From a bacterium BMS3Bbin08 (GTDB lineage: Bacteria; Nitrospirota; Thermodesulfovibrionia; UBA6902; BMS3Bbin08): a stretch of DNA of 64,000 nt. Below, one piece after another: positions 8,015 to 16,135 of this stretch. The first letter of the stretch is position 1; every line of letters starts with the position of its first letter. The notes under the pieces are model-generated. The model worked only from the letters and a program-made list of their open reading frames with translations, was not told where the DNA came from and ran no database searches. Position numbers and translations under genes: made by a program. The DNA lies in NCBI GenBank assembly GCA_002897775.1, contig BDTR01000032.1:5556-69555 (forward strand), read 5' to 3'.

Positions 8015-8533
8015 ATGATCCTTAAAGGTAAGGTCTGGCAGTTTGGAGATAATGTAGACACTGACGCGATAATCCCGGCGCGCTATCTTAATACATCAGA
8101 TCCCAAAGAACTTGCCAGGCATATAATGGAGGATGCTGACAAGGAATTCCCGGACAAGGTAAGCTCCGGAGATATAATAGTTGCGGGAAACAATTTCGGG
8201 TGCGGTTCTTCAAGAGAGCATGCCCCTATCGCGATAAAGGCAGCTGGTCTTCAGGCTGTTATTGCAAAGAGCTTTGCCAGGATATTCTACAGAAACTCGT
8301 TTAATATAGGGCTTCCCATCTTTGAGTCTGAAGAAGCGGCTGAGAAGATCAGCGCTGGAGATGAGATAGAAATAGACGCGGACAGGGGTGTTATCAAAAA
8401 CATCACTAAAGGCGAAGAATACACCGCAAAACCTATTCCTCCGTTCATGCAGGAATTGATCTCAGTAGGCGGTTTGATCGAATGGACAAAGGCCAAGATC
8501 AAAAAACAAGAAATTGAGAGGTTGAGAAGTTAA
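8015..8533 (+). CDS. leuD: 3-isopropylmalate dehydratase small subunit
   Basis: Start moved to the ATG at 8015 ([25 protein letters not shown]), 6 nt after GGAGGAG. Aconitase swivel-domain motifs. Confidence 0.88.
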
Positions 8534-8640
8534 GAGGCTGAGAACTGTTAAGCAAGACGTTGAGTTGTTGAGAAGTCGAGTTGTTGGGAACTACTTAACC
8601 ACTTAACTACTGTACTACTTAACGATTCACCTATTATTTT
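8505..8640. repeat. degenerate tandem copies of the leuD 3' end (gaggttgagaagttaa / gaggctgagaactgttaa / gttgagttgttgagaagtcgagttgttgggaac) followed by an acttaac word repeat
   Basis: Read directly. The spacer repeats the last codons and the stop of leuD. Confidence 0.6.
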
Positions 8641-9695: not shown

Positions 9696-10043
9696 ATGAT
9701 TATGGAACAGAATGTTTTTCTTGTTATCAGCAGTGATGTGATGGGAAAGGATGAGGATATAGGCAGGGCGGTAATAAAGAATTTTTTTGAGACTGTAAAG
9801 GCTACAAAAGAAATACCCCATACTATCTTTTTTGTAAATGCCGGGGTAAAGCTTACGACTGTAAACGAGGAGACAATAGCCATTCTCAAGGACATTGCAG
9901 AACTGGGAACAGAAATGTACTCATGCGGCACATGTCTGAAACATTATGACCTTGAAGACAAGATAAATGTCGGCAACAGGGGCGCTTCTACCCAGGTGGT
10001 CGAGGCGCTTAATGATTTCAAAAAAGTAGTATGGGTAGGGTAG
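9696..10043 (+). CDS. DsrE/DsrF-like (YedF C-terminal-like) sulfur/selenium-relay family protein
   Basis: About 115 aa from the ATG at 9696 after AGGAGG. DsrE-like fold with conserved Cys (MYSCGTCLKHYD). Sits next to the selC-like tRNA and selD. Confidence 0.5.
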   Translation: MIMEQNVFLVISSDVMGKDEDIGRAVIKNFFETVKATKEIPHTIFFVNAGVKLTTVNEETIAILKDIAELGTEMYSCGTCLKHYDLEDKINVGNRGASTQVVEALNDFKKVVWVG

Positions 10044-10113
10044 TTCAACCCTTGCTCCTATCTTCCTGGTTCTCGCTTTTGCCCCGAATTCAAAGGCGCG
10101 TCATAATCAGAGG

Positions 10114-10242
10114 TCACTCTAACATCATAGCAGAGTGCCACGGGCTTGCCCGTGGGAATCTGCTAACCTTATTGCTTTTTACGTTCAGATAGAAATTGCA
10201 GCCTGTCCCGCAATATGTGCATGTAGTCCTGACCTTTTCCAT
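10114..10242 (-). pseudogene. 42-codon remnant of a molybdopterin oxidoreductase (formate-dehydrogenase-like) N-terminus
   Basis: Translation MEKVRTTCTYCGTGCNFYLNVKSNKV... carries the CxxCxxxC 4Fe-4S motif that opens Mo-bisPGD enzymes such as FdhF. It stops after 42 codons and nothing continues in any frame. Preceded by AAGGAG. The ORF-track call 10114..10326 is an upstream extension that overlaps the tRNA. Confidence 0.45.
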
Positions 10243-10270
10243 TTCATAATTCTCCTTTGTGTTTATAATC

Positions 10271-10367
10271 TGGAGAGGGGAAGTGGGAATTGAACCCACC
10301 AGGACATTTTCTGAATATCCTGTCACTGGTTTTGCAGACCAGGAGGAACACCAGTTCCATACCCCTC
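10271..10367 (-). tRNA. tRNA-Sec-like tRNA with Cys anticodon GCA and U73 (selC-like tRNA-Cys), 97 nt including CCA
   Basis: Manual fold of the reverse complement: 8-bp acceptor stem (GAGGGGUA/UUCCCCUC, one U.U), 6-bp D-stem (GGAAC/GUUCC plus terminal U.U) with 4-nt loop UGGU, 5-bp anticodon stem CUGGU/ACCAG with loop CUGCAAA (anticodon GCA), roughly 26-nt variable arm with a CAGGA/UCCUG stem, 5-bp T-stem GUGGG/CCCAC with loop UUCAAUU, discriminator U, encoded CCA. Confidence 0.75.
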
Positions 10368-10534
10368 ATACAATTAATGACTAACAGGTTTTTTGGCGCT
10401 ACTTCAGCGAAAATCCGTCTTGCACACGCTGACCTCTGTGACTGTAAACAATACGGTCCATCTCCTTTTTGTTTTTGAATGGCTTTAGGCTATCCCTGGA
10501 ACAGCCTTGAAGAATCGGAATATATAATATATTC

Positions 10535-10562
10535 TATAGGCATGTCAAATAGATTTATTTTA
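10535..10562 (+). promoter_or_regulatory. conserved 28-nt motif, copy 1 (TATAGGCATGTCAAATAGATTTATTTTA), about 115 nt upstream of the LysR gene
   Basis: 26/28 identical to 12694..12721, in the same orientation. Both lie in AT-rich promoter regions. Confidence 0.45.
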
Positions 10563-10676
10563 TTAACATTAGTTTATTGATAGATACAACCGATAGTTTG
10601 CAGGTCGGATTTAATCCGGGTTAAAATAAGTCGGCGCAATTCAGAGAAAATCAATCGCCATATTTGGAGCTAAGTT

Positions 10677-11564
10677 ATGGATATACAACATTTAAAGATA
10701 TTTATCTCAGTTTATAAAAACAGGGGTTTCTCAAAGGCGGCTGTAGAACTCCACCTAAGCCAACCGACTATCAGTGAACATATAAAAAATCTGGAGTTTG
10801 AGCTTGGCTGTAAACTCTTTGACAGAGTTGGGCGCACTATTATTCCGACTAGAGAGGCGGGTATCATATATCCAAAGGCATTACAAATAATAGAAGACCT
10901 TGAAAAACTAAGGGAAGAACTGTCTCATGCCGGAAGTAATATAAAAGGGCAACTGATTCTGGGAGCAAGCACCATCCCCGGTACATACATCCTGCCGGTC
11001 ATGGCATCGGAGTTTAAGAAGCTGTACCCCGAGGTCTCATTTGAAATAATAATAGAGGATTCAAGAAAGATTACTGATATGGTCTTAAATTATGATCTGA
11101 TACTCGGTGCAGTAGGGGCTGAAATGGAACCGGGGAAAATTAACTATCTGCCTTTTATAGAGGATGAGCTGATACTTGCAGCCGGTGAAAAAGTTATTCC
11201 AAAAAATACCATAAGTGTGAAGGGATTAAAAGATGTCCCGTTTATCTTGAGGGAAGAAGGATCCGGAACGCTTAAAACAATGGAGCGTTTTCTAAATAAA
11301 AAGGGGATAGATATCGGGGAATTAAATGTTGTTGCAGTGCTTGGCTCTACCGACTCAGTGAAACAGGCAATAAAGTCAGGACTTGGTGCGTCAATATTAT
11401 CGAGGATTGCTATTAAGGACGAGTTGACTTGCGGGGCATTGAAGGAGATAAGGATAAGAGGGCTGAAAATGAAAAGGAGCTTTTATCTGATTACTCATAA
11501 AAAACGTGCTTTACCGAATCCTTACAATGCATTTTACAACTATCTGAAAGATTCAAAGCGATAG
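10677..11564 (+). CDS. LysR-family transcriptional regulator
   Basis: 295 aa. N-terminal wHTH (FSKAAVELHLSQPTISEHIKNLE) plus a C-terminal LysR substrate-binding domain. Confidence 0.85.
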   Translation: MDIQHLKIFISVYKNRGFSKAAVELHLSQPTISEHIKNLEFELGCKLFDRVGRTIIPTREAGIIYPKALQIIEDLEKLREELSHAGSNIKGQLILGASTIPGTYILPVMASEFKKLYPEVSFEIIIEDSRKITDMVLNYDLILGAVGAEMEPGKINYLPFIEDELILAAGEKVIPKNTISVKGLKDVPFILREEGSGTLKTMERFLNKKGIDIGELNVVAVLGSTDSVKQAIKSGLGASILSRIAIKDELTCGALKEIRIRGLKMKRSFYLITHKKRALPNPYNAFYNYLKDSKR

Positions 11565-11600
11565 CTTTGCCCCTCACCCCATATCTCTCCCCAGGCTCTT

Positions 11601-12650
11601 TTAACTGATCTGTACACATGGTTGATTACCGCCTGCTACTTCACCAATTAAAACAGCAGACTCAATTCCTTCATTCTTCAATTTTTCTATTAGAATTGAT
11701 GCATGAGAGTTTTTGACTGAGAGGAGAAGCCCTCCTGAGGTCTGAGGATCAAAAAGCAATTCTTCTTCCTCTGAAGAGAGTTTTATCTTTATCTCTAAAA
11801 ATCCCTCGGACAATTCTCTGTTCGGTTTATTGCTGCCCGTGGTCACTCCCTTGCGATACATTTCTATGGCATTCGGGAAAATAGGCAGATTTCTATAAAA
11901 CAGGTTTATCTGCATTTTACTGCCCTTCGCAATCTCCAGTGCATGTCCGACAATACCAAAACCCGTTACATCAGTACATGAGTGAATGTCGAATTTCAAG
12001 GCTGTCTCAATGGCTTTACCATTAAGAAAAGCTATCCAGGGGAGCAGGGGCTCCAGTTTTTTAAAGGGCAGCTTTTTGGAGCGGCAGGCGTTGAAGAGCA
12101 CGCCGGTCCCCAGCGGTTTAGTAAGAATCAGTGCATCTCCCTCGCGAGCGTCGCAGTTGGTGAGTATCCGCTCAGGGTGAACTATCCCTGTAACCGCAAG
12201 GCCGTACTTCGGCTCATTGTCGTCAACCGAATGGCCTCCGGCCATGGAAGCGCCGGCTTCGATTACTTTATCACTTCCTCCGCGGAGTATCTCTTTTAAT
12301 ATTCCGATGTCAAGCTGCTTTGAAGGGAACATCACAACATTCAGGGCTGTAAGGGGTTTGCCGCCCATTGCGTAAACGTCGGAAAGAGAATTAGCTGCAG
12401 AAATCTGCCCAAACCAGTACGGATCATCCACCGGCGGAGTAATATAGTCGACAGTAGATATTACGGCAATATCAGGTGAAAGGCGGTATACAGCCGCATC
12501 ATCGCTGGTTTCGAAACCTACTAACAGGTCAGGATCATCCGGGGTTTGAATCGATCCGAGCGCAGCCGACAGAACTGTCGGGCCAATTTTTGCAGCTCAC
12601 CCGCAGGTTCTTGCGAGACCTGGTAAGGTTTTTTTCTTAAAAAAAGTCAT
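11601..12650 (-). CDS. selD: selenophosphate synthetase (selenide, water dikinase), selenoprotein form with in-frame UGA (Sec) at 12597-12599
   Basis: The ORF track begins at an internal GTG (12431). Extending upstream gives MTFFKKKTLPGLARTCG-U-AAKIGPTVLSAALG...DPDLLVGFETSDDAAVYRL, which aligns with E. coli SelD GAGCGCKISPKVLETIL...DPNLLVGNETRDDAAVY with U at catalytic Cys17. ATG at 12650 after a GAGG RBS. No other stops between. Confidence 0.88.
12566..12582 (-). promoter_or_regulatory. candidate bacterial SECIS hairpin (CCGACAG-UU-CUGUCGG) 15-33 nt downstream of the selD UGA
   Basis: 7-bp stem with G/U in the apical region, at the spacing bacterial SECIS elements occupy downstream of UGA. 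Confidence 0.5.
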
Positions 12651-12693
12651 ATAACCTCACATTTAATAATTTATCGAAATAGTAAATAATAAC

Positions 12694-12721
12694 TATAGGA
12701 ATGTCAAATAGATATATTTTA
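12694..12721 (+). promoter_or_regulatory. conserved 28-nt motif, copy 2 (TATAGGAATGTCAAATAGATATATTTTA) in the selD/nikR divergent promoter region
   Basis: 44 nt upstream of the selD start and about 160 nt upstream of nikR. Matches 10535..10562. Confidence 0.45.
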
Positions 12722-12882
12722 CAGAATGAGTATCATTTATAGAGAATGCCTATATTAGCACGAGAGTGCCGATATCATATTTTGACGGCAATGACTATAG
12801 ATAAGCATTTTCAATGTTGAAACTTGACAATACATCAATACTAATGATATTGTAGTGCTACTTTAATTGAAAAAGTAACACC

Positions 12883-13299
12883 ATGTCCACTGTAAGATTC
12901 GGCATATCACTTGAGAATTCCCTGCTTAAAGGGTTTGACAGCCTTATAAAGAAGAAGGGCTACGCGAGCAGGAGTGAAGCGATCAGGGATCTGATAAGGG
13001 ACAGCCTTGTAAAAGAAGAATGGGAGCATGGCAATAAGGACACGGTCGGGGCTATTTCAATTGTTTATTCGCACGGCACAAGGGAACTTAGCGATACACT
13101 GACCGATATCCAGCACAATTTCCATTCTTCAGTGGTTTCCTCTTTGCACGTTCACCTTGACCATCATAATTGCCTTGAGGTAATTATAGTCAGGGGAAAG
13201 GGCAGGGAGATCAAGAAAATAGCTGACAGGCTGATAGGCACAAGAGGCGTAAAGCACGGAAAGCTTTCTTTAACAACAACAGGGAAAGATCTGAAATAG
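12883..13299 (+). CDS. nikR: nickel-responsive transcriptional regulator NikR (RHH plus ACT-like metal-binding domain)
   Basis: 138 aa. N-terminal ribbon-helix-helix ([35 protein letters not shown]) and a C-terminal His/Cys-rich domain ([10 protein letters not shown]). Confidence 0.8.
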
Positions 13300-13460: not shown

Positions 13461-14498
13461 ATGCATATGGCAGATGCATTACTTTCGCCCGGCGTTGGAA
13501 CAACGTTCTGGGCAGGTTCGTTAGGGGTAATTGGTTACTGTGCGAAAAAACTGAGAGAAAATATAAATGAAAAAATGATTCCTTTGATGGGGATCCTGGC
13601 GGCATTTATATTTGCAGCCCAAATGATCAATTTTACAATTCCCGGTACCGGCTCAAGCGGCCACATCGGGGGTGGTATGATTCTTGTCATCATCCTGGGG
13701 CCCTATGCCGCGTTTATTGCCGTTGCTTCTGTGTTGACTGTCCAATGTCTTTTTTTTGCTGACGGGGGCATACTGGCGCTTGGATGTAACATATGGAACA
13801 TGGCCGTATATCCCTGTTTTATTGCTTACCCATTAATTTATGCGCCTCTCACCAAAGGAAATAAAACCCCGGGTAGGATCATGATCGCGTCAATATTGAG
13901 TGTTGTGGTCGCGTTGGAGTTTGGCGCGCTTTCCGTAGTTCTTCAAACGATGTTTTCAGGCAAGACAGAACTTCCCTTTACTACTTTTTTAGTTTTGATG
14001 CTTCCAATTCATTTCGCGATTGCCATCGGGGAGGGTTTTATAACGGGTGGTTTTGTAAATTATATCAGGGTTATAAAGCCTGAGGTTCTTGATGTAGTTG
14101 AAGGTTCCAGGGCATTTTCTGTTAAGAAAGTTCTTGTCAGTATTGGGATAGTTGCAATTATTACAGGTGGGATGCTGTCGTGGTTCGCTTCGACACATCC
14201 TGACGGACTTGAATGGTCCATAGAGAGGGTGTATGGGAAAGCAGTGCTTCCAGGGTACGAGACAGGGATTATTCCGGATTTGAGAGATATTCAGGAAAAG
14301 ACAGCAATTTTACCTGATTATAATTTTCCCGCTGGTAAGGAGGAAAAATCTGAGGGAGCTGCTGACTCCTGGCCAGCGGTTAACGCTGGAACTTCATTTT
14401 CCGGTATAATTGGCAGCCTGATGGTTCTTGGATTGGTTTTTATCCTTGGATTTGGTATAAATGCAGTGAAGAGTAAACGGCGAAACATGGTAATATGA
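13461..14498 (+). CDS. nikMN: ECF-type Ni/Co transporter substrate component, CbiM/NikM fused to a CbiN/NikN-like C-terminal segment
   Basis: 345 aa. CbiM-type N-terminus MHMADALLSPGVG and a multi-TM body. The C-terminal extension carries the PDGLEW motif. RBS AAGGAGG. Followed by Q and O components. Confidence 0.72.
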   Translation: MHMADALLSPGVGTTFWAGSLGVIGYCAKKLRENINEKMIPLMGILAAFIFAAQMINFTIPGTGSSGHIGGGMILVIILGPYAAFIAVASVLTVQCLFFADGGILALGCNIWNMAVYPCFIAYPLIYAPLTKGNKTPGRIMIASILSVVVALEFGALSVVLQTMFSGKTELPFTTFLVLMLPIHFAIAIGEGFITGGFVNYIRVIKPEVLDVVEGSRAFSVKKVLVSIGIVAIITGGMLSWFASTHPDGLEWSIERVYGKAVLPGYETGIIPDLRDIQEKTAILPDYNFPAGKEEKSEGAADSWPAVNAGTSFSGIIGSLMVLGLVFILGFGINAVKSKRRNMVI

Positions 14499-14570
14499 AA
14501 TGAATTTTGTGATCCGCTATAAGGTAATCGTTATTCGTATTAACTTATAGCTGATAACTGTCTTAATTTT

Positions 14571-15377
14571 ATGCCTTCTTTTGATAAAGAATATTTCAAT
14601 CTGGGTTATCTTGACACGTTGTCATATAAGGATACGTTTGTTCATAGGCTGGACCCGAGAATAAAACTGGTTACAACCTTTATCTTTATTTTGTTTGTAG
14701 TTTCGTTTCCAAAATATGAGATCCTTAAAATGTTGCCGTTCTTTTTTTTTCCTGTTTTTATCCTGTCAGTCGGTGAGATCCCGCTGAAATTTATCTTAAA
14801 GAAACTCCTTATTGCTTCGCCATTTGCTCTATTTGTGGGAATTTTTAATCCGTTCTTTGATACGGCGGCAATGTATAATTTTTACGGGATCCCGATCTCT
14901 GGTGGATGGGTGTCATATCTTTCTATTATAATAAAATTCATTTTGACCGTTACTGCCGCGTTACTCCTGGTTGCCACAACGTCGTTTCCTGGCGTCTGCT
15001 TAGCTCTTAAAAAACTAAAAGTTCCAAATGTATTTGTTGTTCAGCTCCTTTTTCTATACAGATACATGTTTGTTCTTACAGCAGAGACTATGCGAATAAT
15101 CCGAGCCAGGAACATGAGGTCATTCGGAAAGAAGGGGCGGGGTATGAAGACGCTTATCAGTATTATTGGAGTGCTTTTTGTGAGGACGGTAGAGCGTTCC
15201 GAAAGAATATACCAGGCGATGTGTTCAAGGGGGTTTGACGGTGAAATCAGACTTTTAACGAGTTATAAAATCGGGTTTGTTGATATTTCATTTGCTATCA
15301 CAGCAATTACTGTTTTTATTATATTCAGAGGATATGATGTAACAAAAACCCTCGGGGAATTAATAACTAAAACTTAA
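14571..15377 (+). CDS. nikQ: ECF transporter transmembrane (T) component CbiQ/NikQ
   Basis: 268 aa, multi-TM, CbiQ-like region including the RSFGKKGRG stretch. Confidence 0.72.
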   Translation: MPSFDKEYFNLGYLDTLSYKDTFVHRLDPRIKLVTTFIFILFVVSFPKYEILKMLPFFFFPVFILSVGEIPLKFILKKLLIASPFALFVGIFNPFFDTAAMYNFYGIPISGGWVSYLSIIIKFILTVTAALLLVATTSFPGVCLALKKLKVPNVFVVQLLFLYRYMFVLTAETMRIIRARNMRSFGKKGRGMKTLISIIGVLFVRTVERSERIYQAMCSRGFDGEIRLLTSYKIGFVDISFAITAITVFIIFRGYDVTKTLGELITKT

Positions 15378-15400
15378 AAATAAATCTGTAATTATTAATT

Positions 15401-16135
15401 ATGAGTCATCACATTATAGATTTTAAAAATGTCCATTTTAATTATCCTGACGGCACTGAGGCGTTAAAAGGCGTTACCTTCAGGATTACACATGGAGAGT
15501 CAGTCGGCATTGTAGGTGCCAATGGTGCCGGCAAGTCAACTCTGATTTTCCATATGAATGGTTATCTTCTACCTACAAAAGGGGCAATAATAATCGGCGA
15601 TGTCCAGTTGGGTAAAACTACACGAAATGAAATCAGGAAAAAAGTTGGAGTGGTTTTCCAGGATCCTGATGATCAGCTTTTTATGCCGACTGTTTTTGAT
15701 GATGTTTCCTTTGGTCCTTTGAACATGGGATTGACCAAAAATAGAGTTATAGAAAGGGTTACTGAGGCCTTAAACACGGTAGGTTGTTATGAATTAAAGG
15801 ACCGCCCGCCCCACCATCTTTCCTCGGGGCAGAAACGCGCTGTTTCCATAGCAACTGTTATAGCGATGCAGCCTGATATTCTTGTAATGGATGAACCTGC
15901 GGCAAGCCTGGACCCCAGATCACGCCGGCAGCTTATAGAACTCCTTAAGGAGTTCAAACATACAAAAATTATCGCTTCTCATGATCTTGATCTTATATTG
16001 GAAGTTTGCAAGAGATGTATTGTAATTGCTGATGGGAAGGTGCGCGCTGACGGGCTTACTGAAGAACTGCTTATGGATGAGAAATTACTTATTGAGAACA
16101 GCCTTGAGCTCCCGCTTTCTTTAAAAGGCAGATGA
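15401..16135 (+). CDS. nikO: ECF transporter ATPase CbiO/NikO
   Basis: 244 aa. Walker A GANGAGKST, signature LSSGQKR, Walker B ILVMDEP. Confidence 0.82.
   Translation: MSHHIIDFKNVHFNYPDGTEALKGVTFRITHGESVGIVGANGAGKSTLIFHMNGYLLPTKGAIIIGDVQLGKTTRNEIRKKVGVVFQDPDDQLFMPTVFDDVSFGPLNMGLTKNRVIERVTEALNTVGCYELKDRPPHHLSSGQKRAVSIATVIAMQPDILVMDEPAASLDPRSRRQLIELLKEFKHTKIIASHDLDLILEVCKRCIVIADGKVRADGLTEELLMDEKLLIENSLELPLSLKGR

Follow-up and report, generated by a model that had tools for sequence, protein, structure and literature searches.

A putative relocated selenium cassette with a selC*-type tRNA-Cys and a selenocysteine-type selD around a selenium-associated LysR gene in a Nitrospirota bacterium

Why does a tRNA with the shape of a selenocysteine (Sec) tRNA stand beside a LysR regulator gene, a selD gene and a fragment of a formate dehydrogenase (fdh) gene, between a YedF-type gene and the nickel regulator gene nikR? 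The arrangement occupies positions 9696-13299 of a 64,000-nt stretch (64 kb, hereafter the window) of contig BDTR01000032.1 from the Nitrospirota bacterium BMS3Bbin08. The initial annotation of this DNA read it as one compact selenium locus with a selC-like tRNA, paired with nickel genes for a joint supply of the two elements, and every element that it named is present at its assigned position within 9696-13299. We consider it probable, though well short of certain, that the locus is instead composite: a relocated selenium cassette in which a selC*-type tRNA-Cys gene (selC*) and selD share one duplicated operator of the selenium-associated LysR regulator (LysR_Se), the tRNA providing a cysteine-for-selenocysteine backup.

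The tRNA gene (10367..10271, reverse strand; 97 nt including CCA) is the sole tRNA gene within the window. It scores 56.7 bits against the Rfam tRNA-Sec model RF01852 (gathering threshold 47, E 8e-9), and the unconstrained minimum free energy (MFE) fold of the 97-nt RNA is a cloverleaf (-41.9 kcal/mol, z -3.97). The acceptor stem has 6 bp, or 8 pairs if a U7-U66 mismatch and an A8:U65 pair are counted; the T stem and the D stem have 5 bp each, the latter capped by a UGGU tetraloop, and the variable arm has 9. Bacterial tRNA-Sec shows the same 8/5 geometry. ARAGORN reports a tRNA-Cys (gca) of 95 nt, with the anticodon GCA at 10335-10333 in the loop CUGCAAA. The discriminator is U73 (10274), and CCA is encoded at 10273-10271. 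The two programs are in conflict over 10271-10367, Rfam/Infernal calling a tRNA-Sec above its gathering threshold and ARAGORN an oversized tRNA-Cys folded 7/5.

Anticodon and discriminator speak against selC, the identity first given to this gene: a canonical selC has UCA together with G73 or A73, where the window tRNA has GCA and U73. The gene does show the combination that marks the class known as selC* or tRNA-ReC, namely a fold like that of tRNA-Sec, a length of 80 nt or more, a long variable arm, U73, and a GCA or UCA anticodon. As U73 and GCA form the identity pair for cysteinyl-tRNA synthetase (CysRS), we assign the tRNA from its sequence not to selC but to the selC*/tRNA-ReC class. Mukai et al. 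(2017, Nucleic Acids Research) named this combination 'selC* tRNA-Cys' and described a tRNA-Sec mimic. A 2026 study recognises tRNA-ReC by a length of 80 nt or more, an anticodon that reads UCA or GCA, and U as the discriminator, and sorts tRNAs by the rule that G or A at the discriminator means SelC and U means tRNA-ReC. The covariance-model label tRNA-Sec would wrongly imply a complete Sec-decoding locus.

Homologues of the tRNA were found in four loci (loci are given by L numbers), L095/L096, L013 and L078, and all retain GCA and U73. Changes in their D and acceptor stems preserve pairing (GGAAC/GUUCC versus CCAAC/GUUGG versus GGGGU/GCCCC), and the L095 copy differs from that of the window at only four positions, again with pairing kept. 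In L078 a canonical selC (UCA, G73) lies 3 kb from a selC* (GCA, U73) and, since both tRNAs are carried by this one locus, selC and selC* are distinct genes. The window tRNA adds a member to the known selC*/tRNA-ReC class, and does so in a lineage with earlier reports of the class. It resembles published members in its Sec-like fold, long variable arm, extended acceptor, D-stem tetraloop, U73 and GCA, in its anaerobe-type lineage (Nitrospirota/Thermodesulfovibrionia is already listed for selC*) and in its site among Sec-machinery genes. It differs from them in having an 8/5 fold with the U7-U66 mismatch, compared to the 8/4 fold with an A51a bulge of delta-proteobacteria, in the lack of selB* or cysS* downstream, and in its divergent orientation to lysR_Se, with a duplicated promoter/operator common to it and selD.

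The fdh fragment, selC*, lysR_Se and a Sec-type selD make up a block of ~2.75 kb between the YedF-type gene and nikR, and sequence comparison identifies window 10044-12830 as a relocated selenium cassette. Apart from the tRNA, the genes of the locus encode ordinary members of known protein families. Its features are as follows.

9696..10043, forward strand: YedF-type DsrE-like gene (TIGR03527); resident, outside the cassette
10044..10261, reverse strand: non-homologous filler that forms the left edge of the inserted block and holds the fdhA fragment and a strong hairpin
10114..10242, reverse strand: 42-codon open reading frame (ORF), the fdh stub (Pfam Molybdop_Fe4S4); pseudogene fragment
10128..10165, reverse strand: hairpin without a U-tract (inverted repeat I2)
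10271..10367, reverse strand: selC*-type tRNA-Cys (ARAGORN and Rfam tRNA-Sec)
10368..10513, reverse strand: leader, from promoter to tRNA; ~90 nt kept in L095
10514..10598, reverse strand: promoter/operator copy 1, ahead of selC* and divergent from lysR (49-nt direct repeat D1)
10677..11564, forward strand: lysR_Se (NF040786)
11601..12650, reverse strand: selD with Sec at codon 18 (TIGR00476)
12673..12757, reverse strand: promoter/operator copy 2, ahead of selD (direct repeat D1)
12883..13299, forward strand: nikR (NF003381); resident, outside the cassette
13461..16135, forward strand: CbiM-PDGLE fusion, then CbiQ and CbiO, an importer of the energy-coupling factor (ECF) type for Ni/Co (Pfam/NCBIfam); resident

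Relatives that share the YedF-like gene also share the upstream order leuA-leuC-leuD-radical SAM. On the 3' side of the gene they have nikR after 73 nt (L003-L005), hemN directly (L006-L008) or another gene (L009-L012), and none of L003-L012 has selC*, lysR or selD at this site. By alignment the left junction of the cassette is the stop codon of the YedF-like gene; at this point the window differs by one additional Gly and in the stop itself. The right edge falls at ~12776-12830, just 5' of the palindrome that precedes nikR: three-way homology with L095 and L002 stops at ~12776, and nikR-proximal sequence common to L003 starts at ~12824. In L095/L096 the cassette adjoins hemC (LysR 87% identical; L096 and the window derive from one sample), and in L002/L093 (82-83%) a lysR-selD pair without selC* adjoins tRNA-Gln. 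The window was also compared to L104, an independent assembly of a different sample: over 3205 nt the two share 99.4% identity, and 10044-10676 shows no differences. Because this identity extends across the junctions and the tRNA/stub region, the arrangement is neither a chimera nor an assembly artefact.

This comparison bears directly on the pairing of selenium and nickel. NikR and a putative nickel ECF importer do lie divergent from selD, as first described. However, since relatives have no sel genes at this site and the cassette sits at other chromosomal sites, the divergence of selD and nikR would reflect the site at which the cassette landed; the Ni/Se pairing looks incidental, a by-product of that landing, and the locus does not appear to be a conserved functional unit. 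The region 3' of the YedF-like gene (window 10043; L003-L012) is a rearrangement hot spot, with the sel cassette, nikR, hemN or a gene for a membrane protein next in line, depending on the relative.

The LysR regulator and the selenoprotein-type SelD of the initial annotation were both confirmed. LysR (10677-11564, forward strand) scores 302.7 bits against NF040786, 'selenium metabolism-associated LysR' (cutoff 250), and its gene stands beside Sec machinery, with the stop codon of the convergent selD 36 nt downstream; both features place it in the selenium-associated subfamily. SelD scores 361.9 bits against TIGR00476 and has an in-frame TGA at codon 18 (12599-12597) in the context 'TCG-U-AAK', which agrees with Sec in the G-(C/U)-x-x-K motif. 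A hairpin resembling a selenocysteine insertion sequence (SECIS), CCGACAG-UU-CUGUCGG with 7 bp at 12581-12566, lies 15 nt past the TGA. The same TGA is present in the selD of L002, L095 and L078, and a crude scan of the window for genes with an in-frame TGA and a hairpin returned only selD as convincing. Wherever selD adjoins LysR_Se it is of the Sec type (TGA in G-U-x-x-K), in 17 of 17 loci from ~12 lineages and with no Cys form (L001, L002, L032, L047, L049, L050, L062, L063, L069, L076, L078, L089, L093, L095-L097 and L104), and LysR_Se may be linked specifically to selenoprotein-type SelD.

What ties selC* to selD is a 49-nt direct repeat (D1, 80% identity), present on the reverse strand at 10514-10562 ahead of selC* and at 12673-12721 ahead of selD. 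Both copies are the top-ranked sigma-70-like promoter sites of the region (11/12 matches for the selC* copy), and their core motif CTATTTGACATNCCTATAG occurs 2 times in 64 kb, compared to 0.05 expected. The proximal box, ATCTAT-TTGACAT-GCCT-ATAG, has the -35 hexamer inside a T-N11-A palindrome (CTAT-N11-ATAG), and a distal ATCTAT half-site lies 31 nt upstream. This layout of two half-sites is the one expected for a LysR-type tetramer, and it recurs in six copies from three lineages, with L095, L002 and L093 among the carriers. The lysR_Se gene lies between the two operator copies, divergent from selC* and convergent with selD.

LysR_Se has been defined as a subfamily by its linkage to selA, selB and selD (Lin et al. 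2015), a study in which no binding site was defined for the bacterial members. In archaea, its orthologue HrsM acts as a repressor of selenium-free (Cys) hydrogenase isogenes in the presence of selenium, and the effector is suggested to be selenophosphate (Lin et al. 2015). The window protein resembles the LysR_Se/HrsM system (Lin et al. 2015; Sun and Klein 2004) in its equivalog match and in adjoining selD, and control of Cys back-up isoenzymes by selenium status fits control of a Cys-for-Sec back-up tRNA. It differs in its proposed targets, which here would be a tRNA gene and selD rather than hydrogenase isogenes.

Between the promoter and selC* lies a leader of ~150 nt (10368..10513), of which ~90 nt are conserved in L095 (alignment columns 215-292). 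The leader has no Rfam match at E<=1, and its fold is not significant (z +0.7). Within its segment 10385-10460 the stretch CAGAGGTCAGCGTGT is invariant, and an ORF of 19 codons has a Shine-Dalgarno sequence. We rejected this ORF as coding, its changes relative to L095 being mostly non-synonymous.

From these elements we propose a sequence of events. By analogy with published members of its class, the selC* tRNA would receive cysteine from CysRS and have SelB as its carrier in place of EF-Tu, and it would act at SECIS-programmed UGA, inserting Cys where Sec would go. The duplicated operator and the example of HrsM suggest that selC* and selD are under the joint control of LysR_Se as a sensor of selenium status. 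In the absence of selenophosphate, mRNAs containing UGA could still be translated by way of selC*; SelD, whose synthesis otherwise depends on the product of the enzyme itself, could be produced in a Cys form, as could other selenoproteins. Reviews of the work of Vargas-Rodriguez et al. (2018, RNA Biology), among them one of 2024 in the Journal of Biological Chemistry, report a Desulfotomaculum tRNA for which CysRS is the charging enzyme and SelB the delivering factor, while EF-Tu ignores it, and a Sec-type selD was the reporter with which Mukai et al. (2017) demonstrated Cys suppression by selC* tRNA.

A bolder form of this proposal, which we put forward tentatively and regard as rather doubtful, is that the cassette acts as a selenium-responsive switch in the meaning of UGA. 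LysR_Se would co-induce a SelB-dependent Cys tRNA and the Sec-dependent selD when selenophosphate runs out, so that Cys variants are made first and Sec decoding then restarts itself. If true, tRNA-ReC would gain both a defined physiological role and a defined regulator. How tRNA-Sec and tRNA-ReC divide their functions 'remains unclear' according to the 2026 paper. With selC* under the same promoter/operator as selD, in copies that flank lysR_Se, the locus offers a testable handle on the role of tRNA-ReC. We did not find the divergent pairing of selC* with lysR_Se, or an operator common to it and selD, described in the literature examined.

Outside the close relatives, L013 has the order lysR then selC*, and L078 the order selA-selB-selC-lysR-yedE-selC*-Sec-selD; neither has an fdh gene. 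L078:1918-12109 is a complete selenium island on an AT-rich metagenomic contig, which also holds a NifS-like gene, and ~250 nt of hairpin-rich, repeat-like sequence lies between its yedE and selC* (8440-8640). LysR homologues at 64-70% identity (L098-L102) have YedF/TusA, DsrE or AFOR neighbours, with no tRNA-Sec-like tRNA where checked.

The fdh stub downstream of selC* was described initially as the N-terminal remnant of a gene deleted at this place, a description that holds in part. The 42-residue ORF (10242..10114, reverse strand) matches Pfam Molybdop_Fe4S4 at positions 1-28 of 55 (E 2.2e-8). Its best match of solved structure is FdhF of the hydrogen-dependent CO2 reductase (HDCR; residues 7-31, PDB 7qv7_S, E 1.3e-5), and it is 68% identical to T. 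kivui FdhF over residues 7-31. It is a true FdhA remnant. The FdhA-like part covers only ~10248..10165 (YEMEKVRTTCTYCGTGCNFYLNVKSNKV) and keeps three of the four cluster cysteines, and the score of 21 bits against TIGR01591 (cutoff 666) is far from that of a functional formate dehydrogenase alpha subunit. Relative to long-form FdhA, which combines a NuoG-like N-terminus with an FdhF/HDCR-type catalytic domain, ~28 residues are left. All of the molybdenum bis(pyranopterin guanine dinucleotide) (Mo-bisPGD) domain has been lost, as have the fourth cluster cysteine and the Sec/Cys site, and with this site the Sec/Cys codon of fdhA.

The stub is an internal fragment, not an N-terminal one. A full-library HMMER search with it found protein P0244, which is 75% identical over its residues 116-143, across the Fe4S4 motif and including the upstream 'YEM.KV'. 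In P0244 the corresponding segment, 'SYEMKKVRTTCSYCGTGCNF', lies behind a NuoG-like Fe-S extension, which makes 'SYEMKKVRTTC' internal to long-form FdhA. The stub ATG would then be an internal methionine of long-form FdhA, and is probably no native start codon. P0244 itself (L103:1-888, an 888-bp contig from another sample) is a third decayed copy of long-form fdhA. Its FDH homology ends after 'CNFDLNVK', within ~4 codons of the endpoint in the window, and is followed by unrelated sequence and a tryptophanase-like fragment. Another family member, P0266, ends at 'CART', where Sec would follow; because of such members, the FdhA family includes Sec types. The 42-residue stub is already a called protein in public collections (P0242).

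Window and L095 can be aligned over selD, lysR, the promoter, the leader, the tRNA and 13 nt past its CCA, and then diverge completely. In L095 the tRNA is followed by a fusion of two pieces, one of Fer4_Nqo3 and one of the Mo-bisPGD domain, the latter beginning a few residues past the Sec/Cys position; by eye, P0244 closely resembles the Fer4 fragment of L095. The window and L095 are thereby seen, at the level of sequence, to keep non-overlapping pieces of the same FdhA family. In the relative L095/L096, too, FdhA fragments directly follow this tRNA, which places an fdhA gene after selC* at some earlier time, as the initial annotation supposed, though not necessarily at this site. It was probably lost before or during relocation of the cassette, not deleted in situ. 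The fragment would be a record of the earlier selC*-fdhA linkage and have no present function. An intact ancestral selC*-fdhA arrangement was not found in the LysR scans of genome contigs and metagenomes or in the homologue contexts, and a word-indexed protein search with the L095 FdhA remnant returned only itself.

The shared homology ends in GATTAWAAACACA, 13 nt past the tRNA CCA (window 10262-10274; L095:838-853). Independent simple deletions do not explain this shared junction, which could be a site of recombination at the tRNA 3' end. Both FdhA fragments are in frame with an ORF that runs out of the 3' half of the tRNA. The hairpin within the stub (10128..10165; UAGCAGA..CCACGGG-CAAG-CCCGUGG..UCUGCUA), with 18-nt arms of 89% complementarity, appears in both the MFE and the centroid folds. 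It was considered as a repeated element or terminator and rejected, being unique in the window, without a U-tract and not conserved in L095. In L002:1339-5651 (BMS3Abin06), an intact NuoF-like gene and an 820-residue long-form FdhA/NuoG-like gene (domains Fer2_4, NADH-G, Fer4_Nqo3, Molybdop_Fe4S4, Molybdopterin and Molydop_binding) lie ~2.3 kb upstream of lysR_Se-selD. This long-form FdhA is excluded as the source of the remnants, being only 39-42% identical.

Several observations weigh against our explanation. All that we propose for the function of selC* is drawn by analogy: charging by CysRS and delivery by SelB are known only for the D. nigrificans and Desulfococcus examples, and Cys insertion was demonstrated with a clostridial tRNA in E. 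coli. Reading UGA with a GCA anticodon requires a G34-A wobble mismatch, and the acceptor stem has its U7-U66 mismatch. Within the window the adjoining selD is without selC, selA or selB, and no intact fdhA, yedE or nifS was found. It is tempting to see meaning in a Sec-type selD beside selC*, but we rejected this association, as selD is Sec-type in 17 of 17 loci regardless of selC*. LysR binding to the box is proposed from its consensus only. A LysR scan of genome contigs gave a single locus, L002, with tRNA-Gln replacing selC*, and among the 80 LysR_Se loci of the metagenome scan only two (L013 and L078) have selC*. Finally, L002/L093, with the nearest cassette that has no selC*, keep the lysR-side operator; this operator may serve only lysR autoregulation, and selC* would be dispensable in that lineage.

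The last of these points leads to the alternative that we take most seriously, although we judge it unlikely: that the cassette is decaying, with selC* a passenger or relic and the promoter repeat serving only lysR autoregulation and selD control. Such decay is suggested by the destruction of the adjacent fdhA in three relatives, as well as by the operator without selC* in L002/L093 and the acceptor-stem U-U mismatch. The tRNA itself argues otherwise, for it has only four differences from the L095 copy, which leave the pairing intact, while the DNA 14 nt past CCA is unalignable; CCA, U73 and GCA are intact, a consensus -35/-10 promoter is directed at it, and the same class of tRNA is kept beside LysR_Se in distant lineages. 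These same identity elements argue for charging, and thus against a tRNA-like RNA acting outside decoding, by SelB titration or as a sensor of the selenium regulon, with the hairpin as a SelB-binding SECIS remnant. We give this idea hardly any weight. The long (~150 nt), partly conserved leader and the strong hairpin without a U-tract prompted it, and Mukai et al. (2017) leave regulatory roles open for irregular tRNAs, but the hairpin is not conserved in L095 and has a loop unlike that of the selD SECIS, and the leader has no significant structure.

Two further explanations would retain a Sec identity for the tRNA. It could be a true tRNA-Sec with a sense anticodon, serylated, converted by SelA and inserting Sec at SECIS-flagged UGC/UGU, as in Aeromonas tRNA-Sec(GCA). 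The tRNA-Sec fold and long variable arm are determinants for SerRS, in allo-tRNAs U73 may still point to serine identity when the variable arm is long (Mukai et al. 2017), and recoding of UGC by tRNA-Sec(GCA) is documented (the 2024 review in the Journal of Biological Chemistry). The likeness to the Aeromonas tRNAs lies in the Sec-like shape and GCA anticodon; those tRNAs, unlike that of the window, keep Sec/Ser identity and replace the canonical selC, whereas the window tRNA has U73 and its class coexists with selC in L078. Together with the CysRS identity pair, the 2026 rule for a U discriminator and the use of UGA, not UGC, by the adjoining selD and all its homologues, this makes a sense-anticodon tRNA-Sec improbable. 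Still less probable, to our mind, is the coherent and conserved supply locus of the initial annotation, in which selC stands beside selD, NikR and the importer are paired with selD for Ni-Fe-Se enzymes, and fdh was deleted in situ. Physical adjacency of all the genes, the selenium-linked families of the YedF-type gene and LysR_Se, and the FdhA remnant after the tRNA are in its favour. The tRNA is not selC by its GCA and U73, however; in relatives the YedF-like gene and nikR stand 73 nt apart without sel genes or the cassette lies elsewhere; and the stub is internal to long-form FdhA, with 118 nt of unrelated sequence between it and the junction.

The resident genes on either side of the relocated cassette bear out the initial annotation of their families. 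The YedF-type protein (115 residues) scores 121.7 bits against TIGR03527 selenium_YedF (cutoff 110), aligning to profile positions 83-194 only, which is the DsrE-like half, and has a CGTC motif; against Pfam DsrE it scores 19 bits, below the cutoff. It does not have the two-domain YedF signature of a SirA/TusA CPxP domain and a DsrE-like CGxC domain, as the TusA half is missing and no upstream ORF supplies one. The short form is itself conserved, with 27 clusters of 111-112 residues and homologues of 75-87% identity in the corresponding syntenic place. Among longer proteins its closest homologues are YedF proteins with both domains (60-66% identity), and by sequence the DsrE-like protein groups with YedF, not with sulfur-oxidation DsrE. 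On the other side, NikR scores 217.7 bits against NF003381 and is followed by the Ni/Co importer (13461-16135; Pfam CbiM, PDGLE, CbiQ and ABC_tran; NCBIfam ECF_T_CbiQ and cbiO), the expected order for a NikR-associated importer. Just 5' of nikR, at ~12855-12881, is a perfect 7-N13-7 palindrome (GTGCTAC-N13-GTAACAC), conserved in L003, that is probably an autoregulatory NikR operator.

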